A stretch of DNA of 64,000 nt from Flaccisagitta enflata (GCA_965153355.1 OZ231126.1:15996001-16060000), one strand, 5' to 3'. Shown: positions 1,438-53,640, counted from the first letter of the stretch. Numbers and translations: made by a program. Notes: generated from the sequence alone by a model not told the origin.

Positions 1438-4400
1438 ATGGAACCCGCCGACACAACCGAGCCCACTTACGCGTCGTCCCTCGTCGACGCTTTAAAGACG
1501 GTGGTTCTTGACACTTCATGGCAGCGCGTTGGAGTCGCGTCCGATTTACGAACTAAAAAATGCCGCAAAATCTACGCCGAAGATGGCGAACATTTGGCGC
1601 TGATTTACGTCCAAGCTCGAGACACTTTTTACGCCATGGAGGCCGCTTGCTCTCACGAAGGTGGCCCTTTGGACATGGGCGATATCGAAGACGTCGGGAA
1701 CGGCAGTTGGGTCGTCGTCTGTCCCTGGCATCATTTCGAATTTGACGTGGCTACAGGTTTTGATGCGAGCACTGTGGGCCTTTGAGTGAATATGAGTGCA
1801 TTAGAGCCAGTTCTGTCCTCAGTTTAGCTGGACTTAATCTGGGTTTTTGTCAAATGTAATAATTTAACTCGACAGCGTTACCATAACTGTGTATTTTAGG
1901 CGAGAACTCATACGGTCTATCTCAAAAGACATTTCCAGTGAAGATCGAGGATGGCTTTGTCTATGTCAATTCTCCGGAAATGCTCTCTCTGACTCCGTTT
2001 CCTGTTGTGTCGAATTGTCACGGCGATGACCAACCGACCGACCCTCGCGTCAAAGCTAAATTACTCGTCCAACAAATGAGACAAAATCACGGCGGACAAT
2101 CAGACGCTAAAGCGACTCTCGTTGTCGATGGTGACGGAGTTGTTAGTGATGCTACCTCTACAAAAGAACCAAATACTTCGGCGACGTCACACTCGACGAT
2201 CTCAATACCCAATGACATTACCGCCGACGTCGCAAACAAAGGACTCAGTTCCCTCGAAGAGTTTGCCATTCAGATCCTGAAAACAGCGGATCCCGAGGAG
2301 AAGGTCCGCCTCACGTTTCTCACGAGTGAAGCCTGGCTGGAAGGTTCGATCGATCTTATCGACGTCGATAAACACGCCTCATTGACGCCTCCGGAAACGC
2401 CGTGGCGGCGAGACGACCTCAACGTCGTCAAACCGGAGAAAATCAAGAGGGGGAAAGGAGGAACTTTGGCCTCTCGGATCGCTCTCATTCATTCGCTGGC
2501 AAATATCGAGCAGTGGGCCATCGATCTTTCCTGGGACGTCATTGCCAGGTTTGAATACGTAACCGACCGAGCATATGGCCATTGGCCCTAAATTTATCTG
2601 CGTGTCTATCTGCCTGTCTCTGCTTGCATAACTCTCCCTGTCTATCTGCCTATCCCTCTGCCTGTCTGTCAATATGCCTGTCTGTCAATATGCCTGTCTG
2701 TCAATATGCCTGTCTGTCAATATGCCCGTCTGTCAATATGCCTGTCTGTCAATATGCCTGTCTGTCAATATGCCTGTCTGTCAATATGCCTGTCTGTCAA
2801 TATGCCTGTCTGTCAATATGCCTGTCTGTCAATATGCCTTTCTGTCAATATGCCTGTCTGTCAATATGCCTGTCTGTCAATATGCCTGTCTGTCAATATG
2901 CCTGTCTGTCAATATGCCTGTCTGTCAATATGCCTGTCTGACAATATGCCTGTCTGACAATATGCCTGTCTGTCAATATACCTGTCTGTCAATATACCTG
3001 TCTGTCAATATGCCTGTCTGTCAATATGCCTGTCTGTCAATGTGCCTGTCTGTCAATATGCCTGTCTGACAATATGCCTGTCTGTCAATATACCTGTCTG
3101 TCAATATACCTGTCTGTCTGTAGGCTTGTCTGTCAATAGGCCTGCCTGTCAATAGGCCTGCCTGTCAATAGGCCTGCCTGTCAATAGGCCTGCCTGTCAA
3201 TAGGCCTGCCTGTCAATAGGCCTGCCTGTCAACAGGCCTGCCTGTCAACAGGCCTGTCTGTCAACAGGCCTGTCTGTCAACAGGCCTGTCTGTCAACAGG
3301 CCTGTCTGTCAACAGGCCTGTCTGTCAACAGGCCTGTCTGTCAATAGGCCTGTCTGTCAATCTACCTGTCTGTCTATCTACCTGTCTATCTACCTGTGTC
3401 TATCTAACTGTCTGTCTACCTGTCTGTCTACCTGTCTGTCTATCTACCTGTCTGTCAGTCTACCTGTCTGTCTATCTACCTGTCTGTCTATCTACCTGTC
3501 TGTCTATCTACCTGTCTGTCTATCTACCTGTCTGTCTATCTACCTGTCTGTCTCTATCTACCTGTCTGTCTATCTACCTGTCTGTCTAGCTACCTGTCTG
3601 TCTAGCTACCTGTCTGTCTAGCTACCTGTCTGTCAATAGGCCTGCCTATCTACATGTCCATCTGCCTGCCTGTCCATCTGCCTGTCTATCTGCCTATCTG
3701 TCCGTGCTCTGCTTGTCTATCAGCCTGTCTGTGTCTCACACTGTCCCCGATAGCCCTATAAAGTTGGGCATCAATGTCCATGGATCAGACCATGTTTCAA
3801 ATGTTTTATGAGGTATTAGGACCTGGAAAAACATAGCGGCAAATTTTTTCTCACGTTGAAATTTTGTAAATATATTTTAGGGGTTTATGATAAACTCATG
3901 ATTGTAGGTCTAAAACAAATGTTTAGGGTCACACTCTTTCAAGGATATCTCTGCTTCTAGAAAAGCTAGGAAACTTTTTTAAAAAAGCAAATTAATCTAC
4001 ATAAAAAAATCTACAAGATGAGCGCAATCTGGTTTTTGTATCTTTAACCGTTTAGAAATGGCAAGCAAAAACGTGAAAACAGTCAAAATCAAAATGGTTG
4101 AAAAATGACATATTGTTACTACTGAAGCTTATTTCTTAATCCTTATCATAATTTTGGTCCATTCATTCTCTTGAACAGCCAAAAGCAATGAGTAGTTAGC
4201 ATTACCCTTTGAGTGCGAGGAGCAGGGTAGTGGCCCCAAAGGGATGAAGTCTGATAAAAGGCCCCTGGTGTGAAGGCTGATTCCAGGCCTGAGGAAGCTG
4301 ATTTTGATTGAATCAGTTGCCCAACGGCAATATATCCCATTTTCTGCTTTGTACAACTTTTGAATTGAGTCAGGGGAAGCAGAGCAGCAGCCCCAAAGGG

Positions 4401-19294: not shown

Positions 19295-21451
19295 ATGTCG
19301 AGCAATGAGCTTCTCAACGTTTTCGTAAAAGTCTCATCATTCCTGACGCAAGAACCAGACTGCGCTTGCGTCGAGATTAGTTTAGATATCGGTGAGGGTT
19401 GCATTAAGATTAGACCCCTAGGCACGCGCACGCGAGCTAGCTTAAGCTTACATGAGGTGGTCGATCACTCACAGCAGATGCGCAGTTGCCCCTCGACGCA
19501 GCCAAACCGTCGATCTCAGCAGACCAACGATCCTAGACCGCGTCACGGTGATCGCCGTCCTGCAACCAGCTACGAGGAGCCTATGGCCCGCTTCTCAGCC
19601 GCTCCAAACCAACAACGAAGCTCAGCAGATCCTGTAGGGGCGATACGCCTCCCACCTCTTCCAGAGACAATGCGATCTCTAGCGCCAGCCAATCCGCTCT
19701 CGCCAGTGCAGGGACGCCCGCCATACATCGGACCTCGTCAACATGATAGTCGTCCTTTAAATGAAACCATCTACGCGGAGCCCATGCCCCGCTTCTCAGC
19801 TGCTCCAAACCAACGGCAATTGGTTGCAGATTCCGCGGATGCGATAAGCCCCCTTCCGCCCCCGGAGACGATACGGTCTCAGGCGCCTGTCGAGACGCCC
19901 TCGCCGATTCGGGAACGCCCGCGATCCTGCAGTTTGGAGTGCGCTACTCCAGACGCAAACGCGATTTACGGTACTTGTCGGGTAACGAAAACTTCTCCAA
20001 TAAAGCGATTGAAGCCAGGCTATATTCCCATTGACGCCCCTCCTTGCAAGAATGGCCCTTGTAAATCTCGACGAGCTCGCATGCAGAACGTTTCGGCTTC
20101 GATGTCGCGTTTTTCGGAAGGCGACGATAGCTGGAGCGTCGCTGGTTCCGAGGAACCGCTTGTCGTCAACACGTCCACACCTGAGTCTGAAAGCTTCCCT
20201 ACCACCTTGTCCGATCCGGCACCACCTCCGCTGAAGAGAATGAGCTACTCGATGTTGCCCGCCCGTGTAAGGAAATCGTCCGTGGGCGGAGGAACGCGTA
20301 TGGAAACATCGCCAGAACCCCTGCTGCAGACGGCAACGCCGCCCCTGATGCCCTTTCCCCTGTCTTTCCATGTCTCGCCTTTGCCGGTTGGTGTGGAGAA
20401 GCCAAATAACAGGGTGGAGATGGGTAGCAAAGGTTTCACTGAGGCGGATGTTAAGATTGATAGCGCAGGTAAACAGATCTCCAATCTAACAAGGTTCTTC
20501 GATCTTCATTTCTCTTTAAAGCGTTGGTCCCGTCATCCCTCGTCCTTAATCAATACATTTCTCGTTATTTGCACATTTGGCTGATTATCGCATCTACACA
20601 ATCATTGAATGGCTTCAATGAATGCCCACCCACCCACCCTGCATCAAAAACATTTTTCAATTTTCCAACTCCGCTTTCCGCGCAATTTAATCTCGAGTAT
20701 CTCCTTTGCCTCTGCAGCATGCGTTCCATCGTCAAAGAAGTCCTGCCCGGCTTTAGCCTCTGCTATTCCTCCCCCGCCTCTGCCGACATTGGTTGACTTC
20801 TTGGCCATCAACCAACCCGGTACCGCGGACAAGCTGCGCTTCGCCGCGTTCGTTCCTTACGACGATGCCATTTCCCTTCCTTCGGCGTCCACTTCGTTTT
20901 GCAAGCCTCCCCTCCCGTTCAACGTCATCACCGCTATGGCCTTGCTCAACTCCCGACAAGCCACTCTGCCCACCAACGAGATTTTCGAGTTCATTCGGAA
21001 GAATTTCCCTTATTTCAGGTAGCGCAAACTTGTTATCTATTGCTTTGACGATACTATGTGCTTAAAAAAAAAAGAAAAAAAAAAAGAAGAAAATTTGAAC
21101 AAATAATGAAATGAAAACATTGTGAAGAATAATCTTAATCGTTTGGAGTTTTGCATAATTTTGGACCCTCTGTTCTCAGAACCTATCGCAGTTGGGAGGC
21201 TTCGGTGAAACGCGCGCTGTTGGCTTTTCCTCAATGGTTCAGTCGTTATCATCCCACTCATTTTCAGTCCAACTTTCATTTGTGGCACTTCTCTTCGGTC
21301 GAGGCCGTTGATATTGTGATTGAGAAATTGAGTCGGACCAAGGTTAGTGTGAAAATGAAAATGGATGAAAGGCAGAAGGGTAAAGGAAGAAAGGCAGAAG
21401 GGTCAAGAAAGAAATGAAAAGAAATAAAGAGAGAATGAGAGAAAGAAAGAG

Positions 21452-21487
<36 letters not shown>

Positions 21488-24263
21488 TGAAAGATTGAAA
21501 GATTGAAAGATTGAAAGAAAGGAAAAGTAGGAAGGAAGGGAGAGGGAGAAAAGAGAGGAAGAACAAAAGAGAGAGGAAGAACAAAAGAGAGAGGAAGAAC
21601 AAAAGAGAGAGGAAGAACAAAAGAGAGAGGAAGAACTAAAGAGAGAGGAAGAACTAAAGAGAGAGGAAGAACAAAAGAGAGAGGAAGAACAAAAGAGAGA
21701 GGAAGAACAAAAGAGAGGAAGAACAAAAGAGAGGAAGAACAAAAGAGAGGAAGAACAAAAGAGAGAGAAGAAGAACAAAAGAGAGAGAAGAAGAACAAAA
21801 GAGAGAGAGGAAGAACAAAAGAGAGAGGAGGAAGAACAAAAGAGAGAGGAGGAAGAACAAAAGAGAGAGGAGGAAGAACAAAAGAGAGAGGAGGAAGAAC
21901 AAAAGAGAGAGGAGGAAGAACAAAAGAGAGAGGAGGAAGAACAAAAGAGAGAGGAAGAACAAAAGAGAGAGGAAGAACAAAAGAGAGAGGAAGAACAAAA
22001 GAGAGAGGAAGAACAAAAGAGAGAGGAAGAACAAAAGAGAGAGGAAGAACAAAAGAGAGAGGAAGAACAAGAGAGAGGAAGAACAAAAGAGAGGAAGAAC
22101 AAAAGACGAAAAACAAAAGAAAGGAGAGAAAGAACAAAAGGAGAGAAAGAACAAAAGGAGAGAAAGAACAACAGAAAGGAGAGAAAGAACAACAGAAAGG
22201 AGAGAAAGAACAACAAGAAGGAGAGAAAGATAAAAAGAAAGGAGAGAAAGAACAAAAGAAAGGAGAGAAAGAACAAAAGAAAGGAGAGAAAGAACAAAAG
22301 AAAGGAGAGAAAGAACAAAAGAAAGGAGAGAAAGAACAAAAGATAGGAGAGAAAGAACAAAAGATAGGAGAGAAAGAACAAAAGATAGGAGAGAAAGAAC
22401 AAAAGATAGGAGAGAAAGAACAAAAGAAAGGAGAGAAAGAACAAAAGAAAGGAGAGAAAGAACAAAAGAAAGGAGAGAAAGAACAAAAGAAAGGAGAGAA
22501 AGAACAAAAGAAAGGAGAGAAAGAACAAAAGAAAGGAGAGAAAGAACAAAAGAAAGGAGAGAAAGAACAAAAGAAAGGAGAGAAAGAACAAAAGAAAGGA
22601 GAGAAAGAACAAAAGAAAGGAGAGAAAGAACAAAAGAAAGTAGAGAAAGAACAAAAGAAAGGAGAGAAAGAACAAAAGAAAGGAGAGAAAGAACAAAAGC
22701 AAGGAGAGAAAGAACAAAAGCAAGGAGAGAAAGAACAAAAGCAAGGAGAGAAAGAACAAAAGCAAGGAGAGAAAGAACAAAAGCAAGGAGAGAAAGAACA
22801 AAAGCAAGGAGAGAAAGAACAAAAGCAAGGAGAGAAAGAACAAAAGCAAGGAGAGAAAGAACAAAAGCAAGGAGAGAAAGAACAAAAGCAAGGAGAGAAA
22901 GAACAAAAGCAAGGAGAGAAAGAACAAAAGCAAGGAGAGAAAGAACAAAAGCAAGGAGAGAAAGAACAAAAGCAAGGAGAGAAAGAACAAAAGCAAGGAG
23001 AGAAAGAACAAAAGCAAGGAGAGAAAGAACAAAAGCAAGGAGAGAAAGAACAAAAGCAAGGAGAGAAAGAACAAAAGCAAGGAGAGAAAGAACAAAAGCA
23101 AGGAGAGAAAGAACAAAAGCAAGGAGAGAAAGAACAAAAGCAAGGAGAGAAAGAACAAAAGCAAGGAGAGAAAGAACAAAAGCAAGGAGAGAAAGAACAA
23201 AAGCAAGGAGAGAAAGAACAAAAGCAAGGAGAGAAAGAACAAAAGCAAGGAGAGAAAGAACAAAAGCAAGGAGAGAAAGAACAAAAGCAAGGAGAGAAAG
23301 AACAAAAGCAAGGAGAGAAAGAACAAAAGCGAGGAGAGAAAGAACAAAAGCGAGGAGAGAAAGAATAAAAGCGAGGAGAGAAAGAACAAAAGCGAGGAGA
23401 GAAAGAACAAAAGCAAGGAGAGAAAGAACAAAAGCAAGGAGAGAAAGAACAAAAGCAAGGAGAGAAAGAACAAAAGCAAGGAGAGGTAGAACAAAAGAAA
23501 GGTGAGGAAGAAGAAAAGAAAGGTGAGGAAGAAGAAAGGAAAGGTGAGAAAGAACAGTTTAAGGAAGGAAGGACCGTTTGAGGAAGGACAGTTTAAGGAA
23601 GGAAGAACAGTTTAAGGAAGGAAGAGGAAGAACAAAAGCAAGGAAGAATGGAAAAGAGAAGAGGAAAAGATAGAAGGGGAAAAAGGAGGAAAACACATCG
23701 AAAAGAAAAGGAGAGGAAAATGTAGAAAGAAAAAAAAATGATGAAATAAAGGGAAGGAAGAATGAAACGAGCCCATTTAAATGAAGGAAAAACAACAAAA
23801 CGAAAATCAAGGCTAAGTAGGCCAATTAGGTGCGACGTGTGGATCGTTGAACGAATACGTTACCAACCAACCAACCAACACACCAACGGACATAGCCAGT
23901 TATAGTGGTGCTTTGTCGCATCTAAAAAGAATAAAAACCAAACGGAAACAGTAAAGTGTGAGACATTTTTGATTGTTTTGTGTCTTCTGTGTTTCGGTGT
24001 TTGACCAATTTTTGGCTTGCCCGTTCCATCCACATAACTTTTCACTAAATCAGGAACTCTACCAATCTTCTCTGCACGAGTTCATGGCTTGGCCTCACTT
24101 GGCGACGGCCATATTTCGTGGCGTGGTTGAATCGAGAATGATGCCTTCGCTGATGCCTTTCCTATGTCAACTCGGCGAGGTGATCGACGGCAAAGGGGTC
24201 ACCGGTCGTCACACGGAAGTCCAGTGGTGGAACGCTAACGCGCCCTGGTTGCCAAAGAGTTGA
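19295..24263 (+). CDS. Divergent forkhead-box protein, closest in pattern to FoxN1/4 (FoxR-like tail); exons 19295-20468, 20718-21018, 21180-21342, 24054-24263
   Basis: KPPLPFNVITAMALLNSRQATLPTNEIFEFIRKNFPYFR/TYRSWEASVKRAL...HLW aligns by eye with FoxN KPIYSYS..FMALKNSKTGSLPVSEIY..EHFPYFK..GWKNSVRHNL..LW. The downstream LHEFMAWPHL resembles the FoxN RRSMAKPEEL segment. Splice phases 1, 2, 0 are consistent. Confidence 0.72.
21420..23760. repeat. Purine-rich minisatellite array, mainly the 21-bp unit AGAACAAAAGCAAGGAGAGAA with 16-21-bp variants
   Basis: Seen directly in intron 3 of the forkhead gene. It is the source of the 716-aa poly-LLFF ORF. Confidence 0.95.
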
Positions 24264-25074: not shown

Positions 25075-28000
25075 ATGCCACCGGTGAAAAGGAAATCGAT
25101 GGGACCCCCCGTCTTCGCGGGCGGGTAAGTTTCGGGCAATGGCCTCGGTCCTGCTTATCAGAATGCAGTGTTGCATGTTAAATGGCATTGATTCGTGTGA
25201 GCTGTGTATCGAATGGTGCTTTTGGGCAGCGGCCCCAAAGGGGCCGATGACCTAAGCTTTCACACATAGGGGAAATTTCTCCTTCTTCTCCTTCTCCTTC
25301 TCCTCCTTCTCCGTCCCCCCCCCCTCAAGGCCCAAATCCTAGTCTCGAGACCCAAATCCTAGCTTTGAGGCTCAAATCCCCGCTTCGAAGCTCAAATCCC
25401 CGCTTCGAAGCTCAAATCCCAGCCTTGAGACTCAAATCTCAGTCTCCAGGCTAAAATCCCAGCCTTGAGGCTCAAATCCCAGCCCTTAGGCTCAAATCCC
25501 AGTCTTAAGGCACAAATCCCAGCCTTGAAGCTCAAATCCTAGCCTCAAAGCTCAAATACCAGCTTCCAAGCTCAAATCCCTGCCCCGAAGCTCAAATCCC
25601 AACCTCAAAGCTCAAATCCCAGCCTCGAAGCTCAAATCTCAGCCTTGAAGCTGAAATCCCAGCCACGAAGCTCAAATCCCAGCCTCAAGGCCCTAATCCA
25701 AGCCTTGAGGCCCCAATTCCAGCCTCCAGGCCCTAATCCCAGCCTCCAGGCCCTGATCCATCCTTGAGGCCTAAATAAAAACAGCATAGGTCATCGGCCC
25801 CTTTGGGGCCGCTGCCCCTTTAACCACCTCACACTCACATACACTCACATAGGGGCAACGGGTACCGCTGACCATTTAACGCTTTTGCGACTATTTAGGT
25901 TGCTTTATGTGCTTCAGACCAATTTTCTGTCGCCTGGACATCCACAGTCCCATGGAAAATCGTGAATCATCGATTTATGTGTGCTTGTCCTCTTATTGCT
26001 ACGACTTCTACCAAAAAAAAAAAAATATTAAACTGACTTTGCACCCTCCACAATTCTACCCATGACTTCACATTAGGTCCCCAGACGAGTCGTCGTTGGA
26101 CATGTCTTTGAGTCAAGGAGACGCCGACATCCAGGAAAATGACGACGCGGCGGAGAGGCGCGCCAGGCGGAAGTCCAAACTCGTCAACCAACTCGACTCG
26201 GAACGATCCGTACTCGAAGGCGGCAGTCCGTCCAGAAAAAGACCCGCTAAAAGTGAGTCGTTTCAAGATGAAAGTATGTGATGACATGAAATTGGTCCGA
26301 GTGTGCGCAGAACTGCGCATTTGTCCTCAGTCATTGTCGCATGCGTAAGTAAAACATTCTTGACGAGACCTATCCGCTAATTTTGCTTCTTTTGGATATG
26401 CTTTTGGCGCGGAAAAAAAAACAGATTCGACGGGACGCAGTTTAAGCAGAGAAAGTCCCGGGGAAAGCGAGTCAGGTCTCTCACTCTTCTTGCTTCTCAT
26501 CGAGATTCAGTTGAGATGTTTAGAACCTTTTTGTCAGTGTAGACGTGTAGAACCTTATTGTCAGTGATAACTCTGTCAATTCAGACTCCGATCCAGAACC
26601 AAACAGACCCGGCCCATCTAGTTCCACAAGCGGTCATCTTACCTCTGGGAAAAGTTAGTAAAACACTATGTGGTCTTTGTTTCCCACTCTATTCATTGAT
26701 TTTATTGGCTTGATTGCCGTGGTTAGGAAGATAACTGACAGTTGAGTTGGTCATCTATGTACTCTCATCTCCATCCAGAACCACAAAGACCCTTTCCCGC
26801 GTCGAGCAGTCACTCAATTCCAGAAAAGCCTCCTGGGAAACGTGGGTGGAATTTCCTATTTTCATCTGATTTAATCATTCTCGCTTTCAAGAAAGAAAGA
26901 TGCGTGGGATTGAAGAGAAAGTTCGGATCGAATTCGTTATAATTGCTCGGGTAGGGTAGCTAAGGGTGGGAGGGGTGGGGCCCACGGGGGGGGGAAAATC
27001 CACCCGTCGCCCCACCCCTCCCACCCTTCGGTTGAATTTCCCCACCCCTCGCATCAACAGACTACCCCTACTTTCACTTGCCCACCCCACGATGTCATCT
27101 CAATTAATCTCTATTACCCCTACCCCTCGATCCACCCCTACCCCTCGATCTACCCCTCGATCCACCCTTACCCCTCGATCCACCCCTACCCCTCAATCCA
27201 CCCCTACCCATCGATCCACCCCTACCCATCGACCTGTCAATCAAGAAATCGATCATTTAACATAGAATCACAGCTTCCATATTTCACCATTTGATGGCTA
27301 ATCGCTTTTCCTTTGGCGTCTTGAAGATTTTATTTGTGCCTCCATCACCCTCATTCGACGATCAATGTAGTCAACAGCTTTTACAAGTTTTTGCCAGGAA
27401 TCCAAGTTGAGGATGATCCCACGCTCTCCTTTGAATTTCTTGTTCACATCGAGGTAACACTTTCGCAAATCAATTTCGTTGGTGAGCTGAATAAGACATG
27501 AGCAAATTTCAAAATCTGCCAACAGCAAAGTGAAACACTGTCTGTGGCAATGTGAGACTGAAATCCTTCACCTAATACAGCCACTAACCCTAAACCCAAC
27601 ACAGCCCCTAGCCCTAAACCCAACACAGCCGCTAACCCAAAACCCAACACGGCCCCTAGCCCTAAACCCAACACAGCCCTTAGCCCTAAACCCAACACAG
27701 CCCCTAGCCCTAAACCCAACACAGCCCCTAGCCCTAAACCCAACACAGCCGCTAGCCCTAAACCCAACACAGCCCCTAGCCTTAAACTCAACACAGCCCC
27801 TAGCCCTAACCCAAATACAGCCCCTAGCCCTAACCCCAACACAGCCCGTAGCCCTAAACCCAACACAGCCGCTAACCCTAAACCCAACATAGCCCCTAGC
27901 CCTAAACTCAACACAGCCGCTAACCCTAATCCCAACACAGCCCCTAGCCCTAAACCCAACACAGACGCTAACCCTAAACCCAACACACCCCCTAGCCCTA

Positions 28001-31000
28001 AACCCAACACAGCCGCTAATCCAAAACCCAACACAGCCCCTAGCCCTAAACCCAACACAGCCCCTAGCCCTAAACCCAACAGCCCCTAACCCTAAACCCA
28101 ACACAGCCCCTAACCGTAAACCCAACACAGCCCCTAAACCTAACACAGCCCCTAGCCCTAAACCCAACACAGCCCCTAGCCCTAAACCTAACTCAGCCCC
28201 TAGCCCTAAACCCAACACAACCCCTAACCCTAAACCCAGCACAGCCCCTAACCCTAATGTTATGGGTACGCTTATGCCCTTACGTGCCGTTATGATTATC
28301 ATTGTCATTGTTATTACTGTTACCGTCATTATCCATTGTCATTTACTGTCATTATGACTGTCTTCCCGAATCATTCATTGGTTTACCGGATGGGTTCTCT
28401 AATACTAAACGACCCCTAATACCAAACCCATCACAGCCCCCAACCCTAAACCCAACACAGCACCTAACCCTAAACCCAACACAGCCCCTAACCCTAAACC
28501 CAACACAGCCCCTAACCCTAAACCCAACACAGCCCCTAACCCTAAACCCAACACAGCCCCTAACCCTAAACCCAACACAGCCCCTAACCCTAAACCCAAC
28601 ACAGCCCCTAACCCTAAACCCAAAACAGCCCCTAACCCTAAACCCAAAACAGCCCCTAACCCAATCCCTAACTCTAAGCTCAACCCAACCCCTAAACTCA
28701 ACCCAATCCCTAACCTCAACCCAATCCCTAACCCTAGACTCAACTTAATCTCTAACCCTTACCTCTACTCAATCCCTAACCCTTAACTCGAATTAATCCA
28801 TAACCCTTAACACGACTTAATCCCTAACCCTTAACTCGACTTAATCTTTAACCCATAACTAGACTTAATCCCTAACCCTTACCTCGACTTAATCCCTAAC
28901 CCTTAACTCAACCCAAGTTGTAACCCTAAACTCAACGCAATCCCTAAACCTAAGCCGTCAACCCAATCCCTAAACCTTAACTCAACCCAATCCCTAAACC
29001 TAAACTCAACCCAATCCTTAACCCTAAACTCAACCCAATATCTAACCTTTAACTCAACCAGTTCTCAACCCCACAATTACCTCCATTTTACTGAAACCAT
29101 CTCACCTTGTTACGGAAAAGATGTTTTGCGAAGATCAGGAATTTGTTACCACCCAAGACCACTCGTTCTTGGTTTAAAGAATCGCGATTGTCCGTGTGAA
29201 TGGTTGTAGGCCCGTCGCTGTCGTCGTCCTTGATCGCAGGAGTCGGAAGAAGAGAGATAATCGATGTCGAATGCCGGCGGTGTTGGTGAGAGGATGGGTA
29301 CTGTTGTCAAGAGGAGTTGTCCACGATCATCAAAGGTTGAGAGAGAGTCTCAGTTCTATCGGCGGACCTCGGATTCGCTGACCGGCGCTCAGGCTACCGA
29401 TGGCGCAGATGAAATGGCGCAGATCGATTTGCTACCAATGAAATATCACAAATCGGGTGACAATGGATCTTAAATAGGACGTATAGAAAAGGCTAGTACA
29501 AACTGATGCATATCTCTAGCGGACCTATGATGAAAAAGAGCGATATCAAAATGCACATCAAATCAATCAGTCAATCAATGACGAATGAAAAAGAAGCTGG
29601 AATCAATGAGAAATCATGATATAGAAATGTCTATGAATACGGAGATATATTTGCTGCCATCAGCAGACAGTCCTATTCTTCACAAGTCCGTGCACTATAT
29701 CGATTGAGAGTCAGAATCATCATCGTTTTCATTCATCGTCTTCCCCGATCATTTGTCGTTTCATTCATCATCTTCTTCCATTCATCGTTCACTTTACAGC
29801 TTTAAAGAATCATTGACAGACAATGTATACTAAATCTTTGGGGTCATGATTACACGACTGAACGAAGCAAACCGAAGCGAAGAGAAGAGAAGCAAATAAG
29901 AAGTTGAAGATTGATGTAAATTATCCGCAGCCATCTTATCTATACTATGCAACTAAAAGGTCTGAAATAGAATAAACAAGTGAAAAGGAACAAGGCCATG
30001 TCTCGACGGATGTGTGCGCCTGAACGATTATGAATGCATGCATGCGTTTTGAATGAATGAATGAAGGACGGAAGGAAGGAAGGAAGGAAGGAAGGAAGGA
30101 AGGAAGGAAGGAAGGAAGGAAGGAATGAATGAGCGTTATGAATGAATGAGCGTTATGAATGAATGATAAACCGAACAAATTTAGGCACACGATAGATCTA
30201 GATCTAAAGCACCAAGAACGCGAACGGAGAAATTTGAGGAAAATAATTCCTCGTCTTTAATCCCAAAGCGATATCCAGCAGAAGATGTTGAGAGTGACCA
30301 CCATGACCTGAAAGTAAAAGAAATGAACCATGCCTTCCATCCACCCATCGACCCACCCCTACCCCTCGACCCACCCCAACCCCTCGACCCACCCCTACCC
30401 CTCGACCCACCCCTACCCCTCGGCCTACCCCTACCTACCCCTCGGCCCACCCCTACCCCTCAGCCCACCCCTACCTACCCCTCGATCCACTTCCCACCCG
30501 TCGATTTAATTTCCCACCCCTCGACCTACCCCTCGGATTAGATTCCCACCCATCGCTACCCCTACATAATTCCATCCACCCGTCGGATTTTGCCCACCCC
30601 TCGCTACCCCTCACTACCCCACACGAGCACTTATAACGAATTTTAACCGAAAGGTCTTTAGCTTTAGTGGCAATTGTGCATTTGTTTTCCTTTCATCAGA
30701 TATCCCATGTTAATCTAAGTCGTTTTTGTAGTAAATATTGTCGTTTGAATTTCTTTTGAAATTAAATATTATTTCTTCCTCCTTCCCCCTCCTCTCCCCC
30801 GCAACAACCCCTGCCTCTCCATCGCAGCCGCGCCGGCTTCGAATGCTATGTCCCACGCCCAATTGGCGGAACATTACTCCGATTGCATCAAGCTCAGCAG
30901 CGAGAACAAAATCAACAAGAAAAACGCTTTCGCCCTCAACCTCATCGATTACATGCGTGACATTCTCCAGAAGAATGGCAACAGTTTTCAAATGGCCAGT

Positions 31001-33175
31001 GCATCCTTGGATGCCAGGTGAGATTTTAAACGCAATTTCATCAATTTCAAACGCAATTTCATCCACTGCATTTGAGTTAGGACGAGCTGTTGAATTTATG
31101 TCTGAAGAAGTTCAGTCTGACGCTTTCCACAAGGGTGTTATAAAACTATCAAAGGTTTTATTGCGAGGCAGTCAGCCATATCGCATTTTTGGGAGGAATC
31201 TGCAAACGTTAGGCCCTAGAGTCTAAACTCAATTTGAGAGTTTTCACGCTTCAAATCCCATCTTTCTCTTCTGAATCCTCAGCGCGAAAATCTATTCGTG
31301 TCGCGTCGACAACGTTTGGGACACGACGAATCAAATGATGGTAAACTTGGTATCCAACAATAAAAAGCAGCAAAAGGGCGGGCCGGAAGACGCCGACGAC
31401 GTAACGGGCGCCGACGGCGTCAGCGGCATGGACGATATGTCGCAGGGCGGCGACGATGGCGCCGAGGACGAAACCAACGTCGACGGCACCTCCAAACTGA
31501 AAAAGAAAAAGAAAGTGCGAAAGGGCAAAACGATCGAGACCAATTTAAATAACATTCGCGTGACGCATTTCGAAACCAATTTCGAGAAAGACCCTCTCTT
31601 TCAAATTTTGAGCGAATCTTTCGACTCTGGCACCGGCGGTTTGCTTCTCAATCATCTCCACAGCGTCGACGACTCCAACTCCCTACTACTCGACTCGAAC
31701 GCCGTACGGGACCGCGAGAAGGAACGCGGCCGCGCCGCCGCTTGCGCCGAGGCCACGTGCGCCGCCCGCGAAGACTTGTTCGACGTCAGTCAGTTGGCCG
31801 ATCGGTTCGTTTGTCCCTCGTTAAAGACGTTTAAATTCGGCCGATCGGGACTCGAAGAGGACGGAGACGAATCCGTTTTGTCGCAAATCATGTCCAGTAG
31901 TCAACAGAAGGCGGCCAACGCGCGAGAAGGAGACGAGGACATTGAGAAACACGCCTTTGATATGGACGCTGAACCGGAACCCGTCGAGGATGATATCGCG
32001 CCCATGGACGACGTTGTGGGACCGCTCGATTACGACGATGACGGTGGAGGAGGCGGCGGCGAAGACGAAGATGGAGAACCGATGGACATCAGAGTGGGTA
32101 AGAAGTGTCACTATTTAGGGTTGTTTAGTTTGGTTTAGAATTGAGTTTGGAGGACGAGGTTCATCAAGATGTCCAGAGGAGATTTATCCTGTCGCATTTG
32201 CATCGCTGAAACGCTCTTGTCATTTCTTAACATTTGATTGGTTTCAGGCACAAACGACGCTCAAATCAACATCGGCACGTCCTTTATGAGTCAGTCTGGA
32301 GCTGACTTGACGAACCTTTCCATCCTGTCTCAAACTCTGGTCAACTCGATCGATCAACTCAATGAGTTCTCTTACTTCAAGAGTGATAAACTAAAATTGT
32401 GGATGGGACCGGATCGGTGGAAACCTTTAAGTCTTGGAGCCATGAGACCTAAAACGGCGCAGGTGATTGAGATAGGCGTGGCCTTTTAGTTATTCCTGTT
32501 CAGTATTCCCCCTTAACAACTTAAAAATGAATATTGATTATCTTCGATATTCCATGTCGCATCTGATTGATTCCTATGATTTTCAGATGATGGCGGATCT
32601 TCAAAAGAAGAGAAAGGAGAAAGAAAAATTCGTCCTATCCTACGCGGAAGATACCTCGAAATCGGATCAGGGTACGCCGGTAAGTAATAAGTATCATTTG
32701 GAGTGACTATGCTTTGTCCTAATTAATCCTTCATTTGTCATCGAGCAACAAAGTTTTCATCCGTCCCTCTCTCAGATACCTCCCGATAACTTGGATATGT
32801 GGAACCTTTCATTGAAAAAGTCTAGAGCTGCCACAGAAACTTCTCAAATCACCCTTCGGAAGTGGCGCGAGGTAAGACCGGCAGCCGGATGTCGTGGTTT
32901 GCGTCTGATCTTTCACTGTTGATATTTTTGCGCGAAGCCTATGTAAATGAACATGCAGTGATAAAGTTCCTTTTGCATTTTAGTTGGCAAGTATTTTGTA
33001 AACTTGTGTATTTTTCACTTTTTGTTGCACTTATCATTGTACTAATGATTTCTTGTTCCATGCTGTTGCCATGCAGGATGTCGGCAAAAACCAGCTCGAA
33101 TCATTTCTCACGGAGGACCATCTCAAAGGTACAGACAGAGCTCTCTCTCTCTCACTCACTCACTCACTCACTCAC

Positions 33176-40455: not shown

Positions 40456-53640
<13,185 letters not shown>

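Follow-up and report, generated by a model that had tools for sequence, protein, structure and literature searches.

In the 64,000-nucleotide stretch of Flaccisagitta enflata DNA analysed here (GCA_965153355.1, OZ231126.1:15996001-16060000; the whole stretch is referred to as the window and positions are counted from its first letter), the 3,704-bp segment at 26935-30638 is probably a copy of a terminal inverted repeat (TIR) transposon that carries a PC4-like gene belonging to the element. The two ends of this segment are inverted copies of one another. It would represent a non-autonomous cut-and-paste TIR transposon inserted at an AATT site, in antisense orientation, in an intron of the condensin gene Cnd2. 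The element's own small gene would be made up of a promoter region, a first exon, an intron filled with minisatellite and a second exon, and its product would be a short protein formed around a single-strand-DNA-binding domain of the PC4/Sub1 type. An element and a gene of this kind had been described in an earlier note on the same DNA, made from the sequence alone, and the analysis presented here follows up on that description.

The limits of the element were identified from its termini. The 22-nt terminus is found at exactly two sites in the window, 26935-26956 on the plus strand (0 mismatches) and 30617-30638 on the minus strand (3 mismatches), with a chance expectation of 0.00 matches (100 shuffles). 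Counted from the tips without gaps, the TIRs are identical at 14/15, 19/22, 24/30 and 35/47 positions, while allowing one 1-nt gap gives 38/45. Among 200,000 inverted 47-mer pairs drawn at random from the window, only 4 reached 35/47. The TIRs are far beyond chance, and both the terminus search and the comparison with random pairs bear out the TIR-bounded 3.7-kb element of the earlier note. The AATT flanks given there are found directly outside each end. The terminal 15 nt of the element are AT-rich, unique and outside the repeat arrays, and they abut the identical AATT flanks. The features of the two ends are as follows:

26931-26934, no strand: left AATT flank, a putative 4-bp target-site duplication identical to 30639-30642; it was seen on both sides of one copy, and AATT is itself palindromic
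26935-26981, plus strand: left TIR, G-rich on the plus strand, with two G-quadruplex (G4) motifs (26949-26970 and 26972-26994), from repeat and motif scans
26962-27028, no strand: perfect 20-bp hairpin of the left end, with arms 26962-26981 and 27009-27028 that are 100% complementary
27116-27232, plus strand: subterminal array of the left end, composed of copies of an 18-bp unit (CCACCCCTACCCCTCGAT type) and rich in C on the plus strand, with 6 of the 11 matches in the window
30343-30490, plus strand: subterminal array of the right end, built from this 18-bp unit as well and oriented like its left counterpart, with 5 of the 11 matches in the window
30592-30638, minus strand: right TIR, with a minus-strand G4 motif at 30593-30620, from repeat and motif scans
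30639-30642, no strand: right AATT flank, from reading of the sequence

All 11 matches to the 18-bp unit in the window fall in the two subterminal arrays of the element and none outside them. The arrays of the two ends lie on one strand throughout and are direct rather than inverted. The hairpin occurs at the left end only, where part of the TIR pairs with an inverted copy 27 nt inward. No transposase was identified in the element, as had been noted before; the 11 open reading frames (ORFs) other than the PC4 exon were tested and matched 0 Pfam families.

The identity of the gene was determined from its second exon, which matches PC4 by Pfam, by profile and by predicted structure. Against the Pfam family PF02229, exon 2 aligns to positions 20-52 of 52 with an E-value of 1.5e-5 and a score of 24.8 bits, the gathering cut-off being 25; among its relatives, P0025 (34.4) and P0010 (26.5) score above this cut-off and P0007 (24.7) below it. 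A sequence search of the PDB with exon 2 returned chains of human PC4 (E-values between 0.0064 and 0.042), and with the family profile 6 of 6 matches were PC4/Sub1 chains (best E 4.8e-6). Alignment of the family by hhalign to 78 canonical PC4 repeats, taken from relatives with multiple repeats, gave a probability of 98% and an E-value of 1.7e-13 over 42 columns. The AlphaFold (AF2) model of exon 2, built from 21 aligned sequences, has a mean predicted local distance difference test score (pLDDT) of 87.5 and contains strands at residues 4-7, 10-12, 18-20 and 24-27 and a helix at 28-61. When this model was used in Foldseek, ranks 1-10 were all PC4/Sub1 structures (probability 0.87-1.00, 2.0-2.6 Å over 44 columns), the best being 1pcf_A with a probability of 1.00, E 0.083, a TM score of 0.52 and 2.2 Å over 44 columns. 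There was no Foldseek match at E 0.001, the model being very small, and in the protein atlas only clusters named PC4 were found, at 0.86-0.87, which is under the 0.9 level taken as a lead.

On the basis of sequence and model, the homology of exon 2 to PC4/Sub1 is judged to extend over the C-terminal two thirds of the domain, and the PC4 fold (a curved antiparallel sheet and a C-terminal helix) is predicted to be present in this part. The complete-looking PC4 domain that had been proposed earlier for the spliced product is thus borne out for the exon 2 part only, exon 1 giving no detectable PC4 signal by sequence.

The gene was read on the minus strand as follows:

27298-27486, minus strand: second exon of the PC4-like gene, with 62 codons before a TAG stop (27300-27298), from ORF, Pfam, profile and model
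27487-29105, minus strand: putative intron of 1,619 nt, GT..AG, with 24-bp telomere-like minisatellite arrays at 27570-28257, 28413-28662 and 28658-29059
29106-29306, minus strand: open frame of exon 1, 67 codons without an ATG, with a conserved 16-residue motif at its 3' end, from ORF reading
29307-29309, minus strand: in-frame TGA, seven codons past the sole upstream ATG (29330-29328), from ORF reading
29310-30342, minus strand: non-coding DNA upstream of the gene, which recurs in the genome and has internal deletions in other copies, from comparison of the copies; no Pfam matches

The canonical splice sites that had been reported for 29106 and 27486 are both present, with the donor (AAG followed by GTGAGA) at 29106/29105 and the acceptor (TTATTCAG followed by CTC) at 27487/27486, and both exons are in phase 0. 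It is probable that no gene product is made from this copy, because there is no ATG after the in-frame TGA and the start codon of a relative is TTG here. The gene call of that relative, P0025, begins at a position matching codon 29156-29154 of the window, and this TTG codon may mark the start of the ORF. Another candidate start is the ATG at 29934-29932, which is followed 27 codons on by GTAATC.

The in-frame TGA had previously been taken as a possible sign that this copy is decaying. The TGA is indeed found at 29309-29307, but among the best-supported 40 of the 68 differences between copies there is no variant of it, and there are many variants around it. For this reason the TGA is perhaps family-wide, and it may be a feature of the family lying in a 5' untranslated region or an intron, rather than a sign of decay in this copy. 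A candidate 3' splice site, CTCCTCTTGACAACAG, at 29301/29300 may be such that the TGA would fall within an intron. A search of RNA reads gave 0 matches to 29060-30050 in 12,162,974 records (~6% of one run); presence of the organism in that run is not evidenced and no inference is drawn from this result.

Exon 1 alone had no match in Pfam, and its addition did not raise the PC4 profile score, which was 32.7 bits for the spliced sequence and 34.3 for exon 2 alone, with 32.0-32.6 for versions in which exon 1 had been shuffled (n=20). When the profile alignment was forced to be global, the hhalign score went from 64 to 57. Since exon 1 carries no PC4 signal by sequence, a complete PC4 fold is not demonstrated for the gene. 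Exon 1 does not, on sequence comparison, appear to be random, because its motif recurs in P0025 upstream of the same intron. In this relative, which is 43% identical in exon 2 and whose gene call reads through a short intron, GGNKFIHVAKHLKSGK is found ~57 residues upstream of the exon 2 block and matches the 16-residue motif with which exon 1 of the window ends. At window position 29122 the base differs in most copies, giving a change from His to Arg in this conserved motif. The search for relatives of exon 1 returned no candidate. A model of P0025 read through with its intron included had a pLDDT of 69.3 overall and of less than 50 in its exon 1 portion, and a wide structure search with it gave weak helical matches only, none with Z >= 5, and was uninformative.

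Many copies of the element exist in the source organism, and it is also found in marine metagenomes. This was determined using 991 bases (29060-30050), comprising exon 1 and ~750 nt of non-coding upstream DNA, as a query against contig pieces, which were found in the following numbers:

X1, source organism: 77 pieces, of which 20 at >=99% identity, 12 at 95-99%, 23 at 90-95% and 22 at <90%
X2, source organism, second run: 64 pieces, of which 3 at >=99%, 16 at 95-99%, 31 at 90-95% and 14 at <90%
X3, marine metagenome: 15 pieces, of which 0 at >=99%, 4 at 95-99%, 8 at 90-95% and 3 at <90%

The pieces from X3 range from 85 to 99% in identity. In addition to these pieces there are five close protein copies of 70-82% identity on other short contigs. 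In 3 of the 5 protein copies a translated minisatellite, the same as that of the window, leads into exon 2. The word depth of contigs matching exactly was 137-198 and the sum ~5,000, values which give no copy number and are read only as many copies. Related DNA loci were not found in metagenome contigs (queries P0001 and P0008), viral contigs or genome contigs. Element words are also present in four marine metagenome runs of one study (X3-X6), at 5-9% of the element's sampled words in each, which suggests that the host or a close relative was present in the marine samples.

Some of the copies have internal deletions. A joint from 29331 to 29727 is present in X1, X2 and X3, and one contig of X1, with a word depth of 2462, joins 29330 to 29400 and 29449 to 29619. 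The deepest contig thus skips 29331-29399 and 29450-29618, and shortening of the region 29330-29619 is seen in both X1 and X2. Because the contig of highest depth has both gaps, the most frequent form of the element may have an upstream region shorter than that of the copy in the window. The copy in the window also differs from most others at 29122, 29229, 29286, 29297, 29299 and 29318, which indicates that it is not the family consensus.

The PC4-like family extends well beyond these close copies. An exhaustive search of representatives gave 35 matches at E <= 0.001, made up of 3 close copies, 15 short gene calls of 46-129 amino acids and 41-57% identity, 15 longer proteins that contain 2-4 PC4 repeats each (among them a cluster from marine protist transcriptomes) and 2 long bacterial repeat proteins that were taken as spurious. 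A motif specific to the family, DEIDxRKCYxDVDKKFKG, was identified. In those short members that have an upstream extension, similarity ends at one common column or a few residues from it, and the sequence upstream of this column is unrelated between them. Several of the short calls have FQ or IQ just ahead of the column, like a translated pyrimidine tract followed by CAG, that is, a 3' splice site. In P0010 (54% identity), residues 4-35 upstream of exon 2 are formed by ~4 copies of a 7-residue tandem repeat, EGHVSVA, which points to a different minisatellite at the same intron position in this relative. The presence of the family in many short marine metagenome contigs suggests that it is abundant, and unannotated, in some marine animal genomes.

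A number of observations weigh against a TIR transposon copy with a PC4-like gene of its own. With regard to the boundaries, the target-site duplication and the exact ends depend on one copy with a single pair of termini, that copy is without a transposase, and neither an autonomous partner nor an empty site forms part of the evidence. Furthermore, the inverted match resumes past AATT with TTCGG (26922-26926 and 30647-30651), then 4 unmatched bases, then AATT, which means that the boundary could be misplaced or the target site palindromic. If the true ends were 13 nt farther out, the flanks would have only AG in common. With regard to the gene, the frame of exon 1 lacks an ATG as well as a PC4 signal; P0006 is without the acceptor and the first residues, and the C-termini of P0003, P0004 and P0005 are altered. 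A 1-nt insertion is found at 29177 in one diverged copy, and the changes listed upstream of the exon 1 motif occur at ~4 synonymous to 12 non-synonymous, as in non-coding DNA (manual codon reading). Among the close copies the translated intron is ~76-81% conserved and exon 2 80-83% (manual count). An intron that is as conserved as exon 2 suggests that young copies drift neutrally, in the fashion of transposon copies.

Several of these observations would also be accounted for if the gene were captured cargo, with a TIR element having acquired, as Pack-MULEs do, part of a host gene of the PC4/SUB1 type and its copies being decaying passengers. The lack of a transposase, the exon 1 frame without an ATG and with a TGA upstream, the close copies with frameshifted or truncated tails and one lost acceptor, and an exon conserved no better than the intron among them are all in keeping with this. 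We nevertheless consider it unlikely, as the 15 short members keep the boundary and the PC4 core at 41-57% identity while their upstream sequences are unrelated. A coding block and a limit of similarity that are kept while the upstream sequence has diverged argue for long-term constraint and against recent capture. The family is also far from canonical PC4, with Pfam scores at the threshold and a motif of its own. Judged from these sequences, the gene looks like a member of a diverged, intron-bearing and long-lived family associated with such elements rather than a fresh capture. Where the earlier note had left a choice between accessory gene and captured cargo, the PC4-related module associated with the element stands, but a fresh capture does not fit the 15 diverged members.

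More improbable again is a multi-copy PC4-like host gene nested in the condensin intron, for which the inverted repeats and AATT would be by-products of G-rich arrays. In accordance with such a reading, the gene possesses an upstream region of its own together with canonical splice sites, the subterminal arrays are direct instead of inverted, and the termini were seen once only. Yet the terminal 15 nt, alike at 14/15 positions, are AT-rich unique sequence outside the arrays and end exactly at an identical AATT. Many contig pieces contain the non-coding DNA upstream of the gene at 85-99% identity, deletion variants among them, and copies occur in metagenome assemblies too, as expected of high-copy DNA. 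That there is no gene at all and the exon 2 frame is PC4-like by chance is so improbable that it can be dismissed, for although its Pfam score falls just below the gathering cut-off, it is ruled out by the profile-profile E-value of 1.7e-13, the 6 of 6 PDB matches, the ten best structure matches, all to PC4/Sub1, and the relatives P0025 and P0010 above the Pfam cut-off. A TIR transposon with a PC4-like gene of its own is therefore preferred to each of these alternatives.

An unusual feature of this transposon is its density of G4 motifs, which were defined as four runs of >=3 G with loops of 1-7 bases and counted without overlap. On the minus strand of the element, the sense strand for the gene, there are 27 such motifs: the putative intron holds 20 of them, the left end 1 and the right end, its TIR counted in, 6. 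The plus strand has 2, both within the left TIR. Only 3 motifs were found in the rest of the window (60.3 kb, both strands), and in 500 shuffled elements the average was 0.52 and the highest count 3. At both ends of the element there is a G4 motif on the strand that has the tip as its 5' end, and the repeat types capable of forming G4 are three independent ones (the TIR, the 18-bp unit and the 24-bp unit). A study on PC4/Sub1 reports G4 binding by its DNA-binding domain, along with suppression of the instability that arises at G4 formed during transcription, a setting in which the G-rich strand has to be the non-template strand (PMC5449603). In the intron of the PC4-like gene the G-rich strand is the non-template strand.

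These features suggest how the gene could serve the element. Mobilisation of the element would occur in trans, by a transposase not seen in it, and the gene family may travel with such elements as an accessory factor, by analogy with Harbinger. A dimer of the protein might bind G-rich single strands or G4 of the terminal and subterminal repeats and of the transcribed intron, and such binding could either help the trans-acting transposase to find and hold the ends or limit instability of the repeats. A role for the protein in binding G-rich ends is put forward as a tentative suggestion, rather unlikely on present evidence. It is slightly more doubtful that the element represents a new kind of two-component transposon, in which an accessory protein of the PC4 type recognises G4 or G-rich single-stranded DNA of the element's own terminal and subterminal repeats. 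Tandem repetition inflates the G4 count, and the link between the G4 motifs and the protein is circumstantial, which both tell against such a role. If it were correct, DNA structure and not duplex sequence would be the basis of end recognition, or of the protection given to the excised ends and the G4-laden intron. To our knowledge eukaryotic DNA transposons have few accessory proteins, most of which bind duplex DNA. A full-text literature search, with supplements and Repbase lying outside it, found no PC4-type single-strand or G4 binder in a TIR element. PC4/Sub1 is already known as a G4 binder, and what is new here is the pairing of the G4 density of an element with a PC4-like gene. With TIRs, subterminal arrays and an intron that are G4-prone on one consistent strand, together with G4 binding by PC4, structure-based end recognition or self-protection becomes a testable idea.

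The window itself is eukaryotic and rich in simple repeats. ORF pieces flanking the element match condensin subunit 2 (Cnd2/CAP-H, PF05786), and the two exons nearest to it are:

26066-26252, plus strand: host Cnd2 exon upstream of the insertion, with a GTGAGT donor from 26253 (PF05786 profile 10-55, E 0.019, weak)
30828-31021, plus strand: following host Cnd2 exon, with the acceptor AG at 30826-30827 (PF05786 profile 69-129, E 3.6e-17)

A further match to Cnd2 lies farther downstream (PF05786 profile 130-366, E 2.8e-28). Splicing of 26252 to 30828 keeps the reading frame and, given this frame-keeping donor and acceptor, the element would fill 3.7 kb of a 4.6-kb Cnd2 intron. The PC4-like gene is antisense to Cnd2, and the previously described location inside a condensin intron is confirmed by Cnd2 matches on both sides whose frames join across the insertion. 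Other long micro- and minisatellite tracts occur in the window at 21344-23611, 2632-3621, 45999-46997 and 50560-51230, and these contain 0 G4 motifs.

When compared with known proteins, the gene is closest to PC4/Sub1 (transcriptional coactivator p15, PF02229; PDB 1pcf, 4usg, 6ycs and 4bhm). The part of the 66-residue PC4 DNA-binding domain that exon 2 matches is residues 22-63, which we take to be strands 2-4 and the C-terminal helix, and identity in the structural alignment is 34-36%. A number of differences were also found. Unlike PC4/Sub1, the window gene is multi-copy and lies inside a TIR element, and it has a tyrosine in place of W89 of human PC4, its best PDB sequence match being the W89Y mutant. 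Aligned by eye, the loop at the intron site is ~4 residues longer. Nothing in the sequence can be recognised as the first strand (profile positions 1-19), and the N-terminal region of PC4/Sub1, which is serine/acidic or lysine-rich, is not shown in the window gene. From the alignment of exon 2, binding of single-stranded and G4 DNA would be the expected activities, going by those described for PC4 (PMC5449603).

Among transposons, the earlier note had seen a reminder of Sola1 in the AATT flank. Duplications of 4 bp are also made by Ginger, Chapaev and Academ. A 4-bp AWWT target duplication is given as the hallmark of Sola1 in the relevant section of PMC3845634, and the likeness lies in the AATT flank, which fits AWWT in one copy, and in the presence of TIRs. 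This much of the comparison stands, but the element has no Sola-type DDE transposase, and its termini (CGTTATAATTGCTCG...) are unlike the insect Sola1_NA TIR (GGACCGTTTATTTTG...), the sole Sola1 TIR from that section with which they were compared, by eye (PMC3845634). The Repbase rule for termini allows at most 1 mismatch over positions 1-11 (PMC4455052). An assignment to Sola1 would depend on the AATT flank, and the superfamily is left open.

The accompaniment of a transposon by a DNA-binding protein has precedents. The second ORF of PIF/Harbinger elements encodes a Myb-like DNA-binding accessory protein, and Helitrons carry RPA-like single-strand binders. The element in the window resembles these in having a DNA-binding protein besides, or apart from, a transposase; it differs in that the predicted fold is PC4 rather than Myb or OB (oligonucleotide/oligosaccharide-binding) and in that there is no transposase gene in the same element. 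Transduplication by Pack-MULEs likewise yields a non-autonomous TIR element with an intron-containing gene segment. In contrast to such segments, the gene in the window appears to come from a deep and diverged family with a conserved exon structure of its own, and would not be a near-identical duplicate of a gene of the host.

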